Below the pieces are notes generated by a model. That model was given only the letters and a program-made list of their open reading frames with translations, did no database searches and had not been told where the DNA came from. The translations under genes were made by a program, and so were the position numbers. From an uncultured bacterium (GTDB lineage: Bacteria > Auribacterota > Erginobacteria > Erginobacterales > CAZKCI01), in contig CAZOYW010000002.1 in assembly GCA_964584165.1 (NCBI GenBank), positions 35,488 through 99,487 on the forward strand: DNA of 64,000 nucleotides, given 5' to 3'. Position 1 is the first letter of the stretch. Each line of letters opens with the position of its first letter. Below are positions 46,493-47,937 of this stretch, piece by piece.

Positions 46493-47533
46493 ATGAAGAC
46501 CGCGCTGATCACCGGCATCACCGGCCAGGACGGGTCCTACCTGGCCGAGTTTCTCCTGGAGAAGGGCTATCGAATCTTCGGCCTGCAGCGGCGCTCTTCC
46601 ACCCTGAACGTGGAGCGCGTCGAGCACCTTCTCCAGGACGGGATCGAGCTCATCCAGGGCGACCTGATCGACCAGAACTCCCTGGTCGCCGCCCTCCGGG
46701 AAGTCGAGCCGGACGAGGTCTACAACCTGGCCGCCCAGTCCTTCGTTCCCACCTCCTGGAACCAGCCGATCCTGACCGGCGAGGTCACGGCCCTGGGGGT
46801 GACCCGCCTCTTGGAGGCGATCCGCCAGGTTAACCCCAAGATCCGCTTCTACCAGGCCTCCTCCAGCGAGATGTTCGGCTGGGTCCGGGAGACCCCCCAG
46901 AAGGAGACCACCCCCTTCTACCCGCGCTCGCCCTACGGCGTGGCCAAGGTCTATGGCCACTGGATCACGGTCAACTACCGGGAGTCCTACGGAATCTTCG
47001 CCGTCTCCGGGATCCTCTTCAACCACGAATCGCCGCGGAGGGGGCTTGAGTTCGTCACCCGGAAGGTCACCTACGGCGTGGCCCGGATTCAAGCCGGCCT
47101 CCAGAAGGAGCTCAGGATGGGGAACCTCGAGGCCAAGCGCGACTGGGGCTACGCCGGGGACTACGTCGAAGCGATGTGGCGGATGCTCCAGGGTCGGGAG
47201 CCGAAGGATTACGTGATCGCCTCCGGCGAGACCCATTCCGTGCGGGAGCTCTGCGAGGTTGCCTTCGCCCACGCCGGCCTGGACTGGAAGAAGTACGTCG
47301 TCCAGGACAAGCGTTTCTTCCGCCCGGCCGAGGTCCAGCTTCTCCAGGGCGATTCCTCCCTCGCCCGCCGGGAGCTGGGCTGGAAGCCGCGGGTGGATTT
47401 CCGCGGCCTGGTGGGAATGATGGTTGACGCCGACATTGAAAAGGTGCGCCAGATGATCCGGACGGGGGTCATACAGAAAAGGCAGAAGGCAGAAGTGAGA
47501 AGTCAGAAGTGTAAAAAGGGAAGGCAGAAGTGA
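46493..47533 (+). CDS. gmd: GDP-mannose 4,6-dehydratase; the last ~20 codons run into a GAGAAG repeat
   Basis: [26 protein letters not shown] ... classic Gmd. The C-terminal [19 protein letters not shown] tail is encoded by the 7-bp repeat. Confidence 0.9.
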
Positions 47534-47565
47534 GAAGCGAGAAGTGAAGGGAGAGAAGGCGGAGG
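47476..47565. repeat. 7-bp-periodic (G)NGAGAA(G) tandem array; its inverted partner CTTCTCA x6 is at 47868-47921
   Basis: ggcagaaggcagaagtgagaagtcagaagtg...ggcagaagtgagaagcgagaagtgaagggagagaagg versus cttctgccttctcacttctaacttcatatttctcacttctcatttctcactt. Confidence 0.8.
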
Positions 47566-47655
47566 GCCACCGAAGGCAAATTCATGCAAGAAAACCCATG
47601 GGAAAACCATCCTTATATATGAAAGCCGTTGTAGATCGGCGAAAGGAGGGTTCCC

Positions 47656-47937
47656 ATGAGCACTATTCAATGTTCCAAATTCAATCTCAGCGAGAGGTTC
47701 TTCCTCTTCGCCCTGGAAATTGTCAAGTTGGTACGATCCTTGCCCAACGATCCAGCCGCCCGGGAGATTGGGAAGCAATTGATCCGCGCCGGGACTTCGA
47801 TCGCTGCCAACTACGAAGAAGCCCTCGGTTCCTTCAGTAGGAAAGATTTCACCTATAAATTAAGTACCGCTTCTGCCTTCTCACTTCTAACTTCATATTT
47901 CTCACTTCTCATTTCTCACTTATGCCGAAGGCATTGA
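47656..47937 (+). pseudogene. Truncated four-helix-bundle protein gene ('23S rRNA intervening-sequence protein' family) bracketed by the inverted 7-mer repeats
   Basis: FNLSERFFLFALEIVKLVRSLPNDPAAREIGKQLIRAGTSIAANYEEALGSFSRKDFTYKLSTA matches helices 1-3 of the family. The expected fourth helix is replaced by repeat-encoded SAFSLLTSYFSLLISHL. Confidence 0.6.

Follow-up and report, generated by a model that had tools for sequence, protein, structure and literature searches.

We analyzed a 64,000-nt stretch of DNA from an uncultured bacterium of the Auribacterota (GenBank assembly GCA_964584165.1, contig CAZOYW010000002.1), referred to below as the window. In it the gene for GDP-mannose 4,6-dehydratase (gmd) and an rmd-like gene are separated by a short open reading frame (ORF) that lies between two inverted arrays of 7-nt repeats (Table 1). 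The best overall explanation, and one that we consider likely, is that this locus is a degraded copy of a compact cassette. In its complete form the cassette would consist of a purine-rich heptamer array, a short leader with a ribosome-binding site, a gene for a protein of about 120 aa belonging to the four-helix-bundle family (the 23S rRNA intervening sequence, or IVS, proteins) and a pyrimidine-rich array complementary to the first. It would lie in sense orientation at the junction of two co-transcribed host genes and would take up nearly all of the room between the stop codon of the first and the start codon of the second. An earlier reading of the same DNA, made from its letters without database searches (the sequence-only reading), had proposed that a truncated gene of this family was inserted between gmd and rmd, was caught in mid-decay and was eroding both of its neighbors. 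What that reading said of the gene and of its decay is largely borne out by the results described below, and the erosion of the neighbors is not.

The product of the window ORF scored above the curated cut-offs of both family profiles, with 41.6 bits against PF05635 (cut-off 33.8; profile positions 7 to 66 of 106) and 51.6 bits against TIGR02436 (cut-off 24; positions 4 to 62 of 109). In either case, the first 60% or so of the profile was covered and the rest was unmatched, which confirms that the gene is a truncated member of the family. Residues 1 to 73 make up the family-homologous part, comprising helix 1, helix 2 and the start of helix 3. Full-length relatives show no homology beyond about residue 73 (near nt 47872), the place where the right array starts. 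Residues 74 to 93 are encoded by that array and, in another frame, by the first 16 nt of rmd, with the stop codon 13 nt after the rmd ATG; the ORF does, as had been proposed, read into the CTTCTCA repeat. In the AlphaFold model (pLDDT 91) of the closest intact homolog, P0002, the helices span residues 11–27, 33–57, 62–88 and 94–119. Helices 1 and 2 are retained in the window ORF, but of the 27 residues of helix 3 it has only about 12, so that the earlier assignment to helices 1 to 3 holds for the first two and for only part of the third. Because the complete four-helix architecture (about 110 to 125 aa) is lacking, the window copy is a gene fragment. The helix-2 motif RxxxSxxxNxxE, which has been quoted as conserved in the four-helix-bundle family (PMC3936711) and is invariant or nearly so in the family alignment, is present as R44, S48, N52 and E55. 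A Shine-Dalgarno (SD) sequence, AGGAGG, is positioned at 47644–47649, 6 nt before the ATG. A tblastn search of the window with 42 family members, which included the loops of the ORF-less hairpins described below, found no second copy or remnant of the gene.

In a three-way DNA alignment, the window copy was found to lack about 210 nt of the intact cassette at locus L087. The missing stretch encodes what remains of helix 3 and the whole of helix 4, and it further comprises the stop codon and that part of the right array which lies nearest to the gene. The breakpoint in the window lies at CTTCT, a sequence common to the gene (AGC ACT TCT TTC) and to the array units. It is because of this loss that the window ORF runs through the right array and ends just past the rmd ATG, and the truncated protein is probably non-functional. 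Three other database members of the clade, P0018, P0027 (68 aa) and P0019 (90 aa), are also cut at or just after residue 70 or so, or have helix 3 internally deleted, which suggests that the gene has broken here more than once.

In related genomes, we recovered the gmd-rmd junction in six haplotypes, and the insert is present, absent or different among them. The haplotype of the window, with its 3′-truncated ORF, has an identical junction sequence in three independent assemblies (L001–L003). L168 and L169, in which gmd is 98.0% and rmd 98.4% identical to the window at the nucleotide level, carry a 39-codon remnant, MAESEKKHDLSERLFQ-LWQESVEIKNILGKGVKTARGD, that joins the start of helix 1 to helix 4; its second half resembles helix 4 of the clade-1 proteins (blastp-short, E = 3e-7). 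The arrays around this remnant are built of AAAAGKN and its complement, a unit unlike that of the window, there is no leader, and blastn found no similarity between the L168/L169 junction and the window cassette. At the focal site, the flanks are 98% identical and yet the cassettes are unrelated. L170 (gmd and rmd 97.2% and 94.4% identical to the window) has only five units of the window-type left array, fused at GAAGG to codon 3 of rmd, and the gmd stop codon overlaps the new GTG start (GTGA). L004, which represents a different species (88.5% and 83.1%), has a 47-nt junction with a two-unit hairpin (GGGAGAAGCAGGAAGT ... ACTTCTTGCTTCCCC) and no ORF. In L087, an intact 122-aa gene is enclosed by 102-nt arms; the cassette is 68% identical to that of the window at the nucleotide level, leader included, and the encoded protein, which has an intact fourth helix, shows 74% amino acid identity to the window ORF. 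The last 24 nt of L087 are identical to the start of the rmd ortholog on L171 (P0049; 84% amino acid identity to the window rmd product), a contig that starts inside another variant of the right array. The junctions can be arranged as a series running from intact, through 3′-truncated, internally deleted and bare hairpin, to left array only. The sequence-only reading had held that a full-length gene at this site in relatives would speak for a resident gene. Such a gene, complete with its fourth helix, does occur in L087, but other relatives carry a different remnant, a bare hairpin or nothing, and for this reason the gene is not a stable resident and the interpretation of an insertion in mid-decay stands.

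One could nevertheless envision that the 93-aa ORF and the arrays reside in the gmd-rmd operon as a working regulatory module, in which, for instance, a small protein and an attenuator stem together tune rmd expression. The SD sequence of the ORF is a good one, its frame remains open across the right array and ends only a little beyond the rmd ATG, the sequence is the same in all three assemblies, and rmd has no SD sequence of its own, which makes coupling plausible. However, the fold needs four helices, of which the third is more than half missing from the ORF and the fourth is missing altogether, genomes with flanks 97–98% identical to those of the window have a different remnant or no cassette while their rmd is still intact, and the four-helix-bundle family is found inserted in many unrelated operons. 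We regard a resident module as improbable.

The right array of the window is the reverse complement of the left one (arms of 57 nt, 79% complementary), and Tandem Repeats Finder gives both a period of 7, with 8.1 and 6.4 copies. The left array is homologous to the left array of L087 and to the array kept in L170. It has a super-period of 35 nt; the idea that this spacing, with five heptamers per pentamer, is a clue to the binding unit was dropped because the corresponding period in L087 is 56 nt. The G+C content of the cassette segment is 42–50%, as compared with 65–75% in the surroundings. Within the window, the GAGAAGT motif and the four-helix-bundle gene are present at one site only, and the 13-mer AGAAGTGAGAAGT, when up to two mismatches are allowed, occurs 10 times (0.63 expected), always at the gmd-rmd locus. 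As RNA, the segment folds with a minimum free energy (MFE) of −165 kcal/mol (z = −5.08), and the left and right arrays pair as one long stem in both the MFE and the centroid structures. There were no Rfam matches in 47000–48400, even at a permissive E-value. A scan of 47300–48100 found neither a sigma-70 promoter nor an intrinsic terminator, so neither a promoter of the cassette's own nor a terminator role is supported by consensus.

The same arrangement was observed well beyond the gmd-rmd locus. A scan of metagenomes with the family alignment yielded 80 more loci, and at each of 71 usable loci the 260 nt upstream of the gene were aligned to the reverse complement of the 220 nt downstream, with a score of 34 as the threshold for flanking inverted repeats. 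This score was reached at 50 of the 71 loci (median 39). None of 108 random control windows from the same loci reached it (maximum 23), and one of 60 control genes came close (maximum 33). At 48 of the 50 loci the arm matches itself best at a lag of 7, and at 48, likewise, the upstream arm is rich in purines on the sense strand (69% purine, 49% A). The neighboring genes share the orientation of the four-helix-bundle gene in 48 of 54 cases on the upstream side and in 45 of 53 on the downstream side. At 8 of 31 loci the stop codon of the upstream gene falls within the left arm, at 18 of the other 23 it lies no more than 23 nt from the arm, and the next gene usually starts 9–30 nt past the right arm. 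As a rule, a gene of this family is laid out between two arrays.

The heptamer differs from locus to locus (RAAGTN, GAGAACC, GGCAAAA, CAATGRY, GCAAAAT and others), and its type tracks the protein clade (Mantel r = 0.42; 0 of 2000 permutations). The RAAGTN type accompanies clade-1 proteins in the lineage of the window as well as in metagenome-assembled genomes (MAGs) labeled Planctomycetes and Deltaproteobacteria. Three distant homologs, from MAGs labeled Planctomycetes or Deltaproteobacteria, are bracketed by inverted AAGTAAAAAGT-type arrays, and two of the three lie within operons for 2-oxoacid:ferredoxin oxidoreductase. Protein clade and heptamer type are inherited together. Hence the inverted arrays, which the sequence-only reading had taken for the footprint of an insertion, are a constant and clade-specific part of the cassette. 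On pNPUN02 of Nostoc punctiforme PCC 73102, the gene is surrounded by four copies of CAATTCG and four of GCGAATT, and in the isolates Planktothrix agardhii NIES-204 and Treponema saccharophilum it is accompanied by inverted arrays. The inverted arrays of Candidatus Chlorohelix are weak and short; Anabaena cylindrica and Bernardetia have direct arrays instead. As to the genes next to it, the family member lies between cas2 and cas1 in A. cylindrica PCC 7122 (pANACY.01; L172), between a helicase gene and an N-6 DNA methylase gene on a Ca. Chlorohelix plasmid (L174), and between a helicase gene and a gene for a large hypothetical protein on a Planktothrix NIES-204 plasmid (L177). These placements may explain why such genes are scored as CRISPR-associated or defense-associated in guilt-by-association surveys.

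Divergence of the cassettes is independent of that of their flanks. Where diverged genomes share a syntenic site, identity is 95–99% for the gene and 60–88% for the genes that flank it. Identity at third codon positions is 0.92 in the gene and 0.66–0.72 in the flanks for L095/L096, 0.97 and 0.76–0.79 for L099/L100, 0.97 and 0.53 for L092/L101, and 0.78 and 0.47–0.48 for L112/L129. Gene pairs that are 85–89% identical also occur in unrelated flanks (for example, L118/L150 and L140/L167). At shared sites, the block of high identity extends from about the start of the ORF to about 50–100 nt past its end, and the upstream array region contains large indels. A gene that is more alike than its flanks at a shared site is what recent horizontal exchange, and not vertical descent, would be expected to produce, and these comparisons suggest that the cassettes are exchanged horizontally. 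The right flank of L107, L109, L129, L134 and L137 matches the left flank of L113, which indicates that cassettes occupy successive junctions of one operon in related genomes.

Alternatively, the arrays might be a feature of the host genome, serving as terminators or mRNA stabilizers or being simply slippage-prone repeats, and the gene might have landed in the loop of a pre-existing hairpin. The window contains at least seven other intergenic hairpins of tandem 7-, 9- or 10-nt units that have no ORF, L004 has a small hairpin of the same motif and no ORF at the gmd-rmd junction, and heptamer arrays with no known link to a gene exist in Xanthomonas, Nostoc and Beggiatoaceae (PMC4692102, PMC4679880). 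This explanation fits poorly with a heptamer type that follows the protein clade across hosts, as RAAGTN does with clade 1, or with a GAGAAGT motif that is confined to the gmd-rmd locus within the window. In addition, L170, with its left array of the window type, has clearly arisen by deletion, and the block of high identity at shared sites begins at about the ORF and leaves the upstream array to its indels. We think it unlikely that the arrays preceded the gene as a host feature. Should the ORF-less hairpins be landing sites for cassettes, or cassettes that have decayed, the two explanations could be merged.

The fold of the intact homolog matches those of the pentameric 2RLD (BT_0352), of 2GSC (Xcc0516) and of Avd, a pentamer that binds nucleic acid and a polymerase. 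A further scenario is that the ORF is an orphan Avd of a diversity-generating retroelement (DGR) and that the A-rich arrays are remnants of its template and variable repeats. The four-helix-bundle folds are homologous, the resemblance to Avd (4DWL, 8UB7) has a TM score of about 0.7, and PF05635 is the Pfam hit for Avd-like proteins in DGR surveys (PMC10053308). On the other hand, none of the genes called between about 10 kb upstream and 4 kb downstream of the locus has a reverse-transcriptase (RVT) domain on record, the arrays are inverted and made of plain 7-mers, unlike a template/variable-repeat pair, and the closest structural relatives are the non-DGR proteins 2RLD and 2GSC, which are also much closer in sequence. 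With no reverse transcriptase on record among the nearby genes, the DGR/Avd identity was rejected, and we find it hardly credible.

We return to the cassette explanation and consider how such an element might work. Its two arrays would be the functional ends of a selfish element and could pair with each other, in DNA to give a hairpin or cruciform and in RNA to give a long stem of the kind that RNase III cuts in the 23S rRNA intervening sequences. The arrays may also provide the places where genomes exchange cassettes and where cassettes enter new junctions. A pentameric protein of the nucleic-acid-binding type could recognize its own heptamer; in view of the link between repeat unit and clade and the likeness to 2RLD, 2GSC and Avd, this is a reasonable hypothesis. 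Decay would proceed by slippage or by microhomology deletion among repeat units, at CTTCT in the window and at GAAGG in L170, and would lead from a truncated ORF to a bare array hairpin and then to nothing. One may also speculate that translation through the right arm opens the stem and aids initiation at rmd, given that the ORF ends just past an rmd start that has no SD sequence.

Several observations weigh against the cassette explanation or parts of it. In the arms of 52 loci, G·U pairs are not in excess over A·C mismatches (80 and 82, respectively), and hence there is no sign of selection at the RNA level. Given this lack of bias, it may be in DNA that the arms are kept complementary, whether because they form hairpins or cruciforms, because repair is templated or because they serve as paired sites for protein binding. 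No recombinase or transposase was seen, and no target-site duplication was found at the borders in the window or in the comparison of filled with empty sites (L004, L170). A scan of viral contigs with the family alignment found no relatives, so carriage by phage is without evidence. A strong inverted pair is lacking at 21 of the 71 loci, some of which have direct arrays, and the correlation between heptamer and clade could partly reflect host phylogeny. The several inverted arrays in the window that have other units and no ORF indicate that arrays can exist without the gene. Finally, the L170 contig has a coverage of only 1.4x.

Among known systems, the closest is the 23S rRNA IVS with an S23p ORF, as found in Leptospira and Coxiella burnetii, with which the cassette has its protein family in common. 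In both, complementary termini form a stem that encloses an optional ORF in its loop, the G+C content is below that of the host, the distribution is sporadic and horizontally acquired, and the ORF is prone to deletion. The Coxiella IVS, which bears a gene of the same family and is cut by RNase III, has two to three tandem heptamers (GACAGAT) just upstream of the ORF, their number varying by strain, and deletions of the ORF in some strains, with 176 bp lost in one (PMC4990558). However, the IVSs reside in helix 9, 25 or 45 of 23S rRNA, whereas the window element lies between two protein-coding genes of an operon, and the stem of the cassette is made of long heptamer arrays of 7–16 units per arm in place of a unique 28-bp sequence. 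Excision by RNase III is proposed for the cassette by analogy, as the arms do not have the G·U signature of RNA-level selection. When 83 homologous loci were searched for six conserved rRNA motifs as a sign of embedding in rRNA, 82 had no match, and the minus-strand match in L085 (2 mismatches) is probably due to chance. Members of the family have been reported inside cas operons and in rRNA insertions of the Candidate Phyla Radiation.

Heptamer arrays that are abundant and unexplained have been described as short tandemly repeated repetitive (STRR) sequences in cyanobacteria, as TAACTGA arrays in Beggiatoaceae, cyanobacteria and Bacteroidetes, and as GGGAATC arrays in Xanthomonas, where there are 70–75 convergent inverted pairs (PMC4679880, PMC4692102). 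The arrays in the window resemble them in having intergenic, head-to-tail units of period 7 with a convergent pair, often adjoining start codons, in copy numbers that vary between close relatives. The difference is that no gene has been linked to the arrays in those reports, whereas the arrays described here bracket one gene family and their unit follows its clade. In the literature searched, which included few subscription journals, so that earlier notice is possible, we did not find it stated that inverted heptamer arrays generally bracket these genes.

Foldback transposons and MITEs (miniature inverted-repeat transposable elements) have terminal inverted repeats composed of short tandem subrepeats and exist as copies with and without a central coding segment. 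The cassette, too, has terminal inverted repeats, but the likeness is architectural only, since no transposase, target-site duplication or evidence of cut-and-paste movement was found for it. Homing-type selfish genes, whether free-standing or borne by introns or inteins, are more conserved than their flanks, show presence/absence polymorphism and go through cycles of invasion, degeneration and loss. The cassettes are likewise far more conserved than the flanks at the same site, are polymorphic for presence and absence, and appear to pass through such cycles. Unlike homing endonuclease genes, they encode a protein with no recognizable nuclease domain, and to our knowledge no cleavage activity has been ascribed to the four-helix-bundle family. 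The description that fits the element best is a variant of the IVS-type four-helix-bundle cassette that occupies operon junctions and has heptamer-array ends and homing-like behavior.

Both host genes are intact in the window. The gmd product scored 442.8 bits against TIGR01472, residues 2–317 covering positions 1–341 of the 342 in the model, and the match is followed by a conserved short extension and then by a basic tail. As the sequence-only reading had stated, the left array supplies the end of gmd, with the last 19 codons or so, from position 47476, lying in it. The tail varies, the protein being 337, 339 or 346 aa long among variants that are at least 90% identical. The right array was likewise correctly described as running up to the rmd ATG, since its last base is at −1 relative to position 47922. 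The start of rmd is intact and is not preceded by an SD sequence, and the closest named homologs of the gene are about 50% identical. Erosion of the neighbors is thus not upheld. Moreover, gmd ends inside the left arm in L004 also, despite the lack of an ORF at that junction.

Table 1. Features of the gmd-rmd region in the window (coordinates are those of the 64,000-nt stretch)
Feature	Position	Strand	Remarks
gmd (GDP-mannose 4,6-dehydratase), complete	46493..47533	+	346 aa; TIGR01472
Left arm, purine-rich heptamer array	47476..47563	+	AGAAGTG / AGAAGGC / AGAAGTC units; about 12 units; two 35-nt blocks
Cassette leader	47564..47655	+	92 nt; alignable with the L087 leader
Truncated four-helix-bundle ORF	47656..47937	+	93 aa; PF05635/TIGR02436 matches
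Right arm, pyrimidine-rich heptamer array	47868..47921	+	CTTCTCA / CTTCTGC units
Inferred deletion junction, CTTCT microhomology	47869..47873	+	Three-way DNA alignment
rmd-like short-chain dehydrogenase/reductase gene, complete	47922..48881	+	GDP-4-dehydro-6-deoxy-D-mannose reductase, per annotation of an 84% homolog

Other repeats are scattered over the window. A perfect hairpin of about 25 bp (GAGGGACGGTGGCAACTTGTCAACT ... AGTTGACAAGTTGCCACCGTCCCTC) is located at about 48886–48939, right after the rmd stop codon and between the convergent rmd and AAA-ATPase genes; it has no T-run and is therefore not a canonical intrinsic terminator. Inverted heptamer hairpins without an ORF are present at 38775–38866 (CAGTGAT/TCACTGA), 45157–45256 (GTGATCA/CTGATCA) and 62766–62848 (GTGTCAG/CTGACAC). 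Their loops are 18–25 nt long, and they directly follow or overlap the stop codon of the upstream gene. Relative to a 98%-identical genome, the array at 45157–45256 has an indel of 14 nt, or two units. Units of the CAGTGAT type resemble those found in metagenomes on either side of clade-4 four-helix-bundle genes (L113 is an example). Between genes, hairpins or palindromic arrays of 9- or 10-nt units are also found at 6555–6677 (CGCGGATTA / AATCCGCG, with a loop of about 66 nt), 22786–22850 (CGAATTACG), 32699–32745 (GTTACGTAAG) and 35053–35108 (CCTATAGGT, a near-perfect palindrome of 56 nt). Short-repeat hairpins seem to be a genome-wide habit of this organism. Two 9-mer arrays, GTCCATNCC at 33879–33918 and the reverse-complement motif ATGGACNGA at 52720–52778, form a distant inverted pair 19 kb apart. 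An array of the ACGTAACCTT type at 793–914, with a 38-nt super-period (2.9 copies, 95% matches), lies upstream of an ATG at about 917. There is also a 44-nt tandem duplication with internal palindromes at 22151–22237, and a repeat with a periodicity of 120/240 nt at 23111–23643, inside a long minus-strand ORF (22916..25552).

The four-helix-bundle or IVS protein family is large, is present in many phyla and has been flagged repeatedly in connection with cas operons, restriction systems and rRNA, and it has no known function. Tentatively, and with somewhat less than even confidence, we extend our interpretation to the family as a whole: its genes, together with their inverted heptamer arrays, would constitute a widespread and so far undescribed class of bacterial selfish cassettes that home into operon junctions and rRNA helices, each clade recognizing its own heptamer, and whose decay leaves behind the ORF-less arrays and array hairpins (STRR, TAACTGA, GGGAATC and others) that have gone unexplained since about 1990. 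The link between gene and arrays turns two old puzzles, the function of the family and the nature of heptamer arrays, into testable questions: whether the protein binds its own heptamer, whether the arrays are the ends used in exchange, and whether array hairpins are the relics of lost cassettes. At the gmd-rmd junction, a cassette explains the basic tail of gmd, the lack of an SD sequence before rmd and the variation of the junction from strain to strain, and it illustrates how gene tails and start contexts are reshaped by the arrays. For annotators, the finding is a warning that four-helix-bundle genes located inside operons are probably passengers and not functional partners of the genes that surround them.

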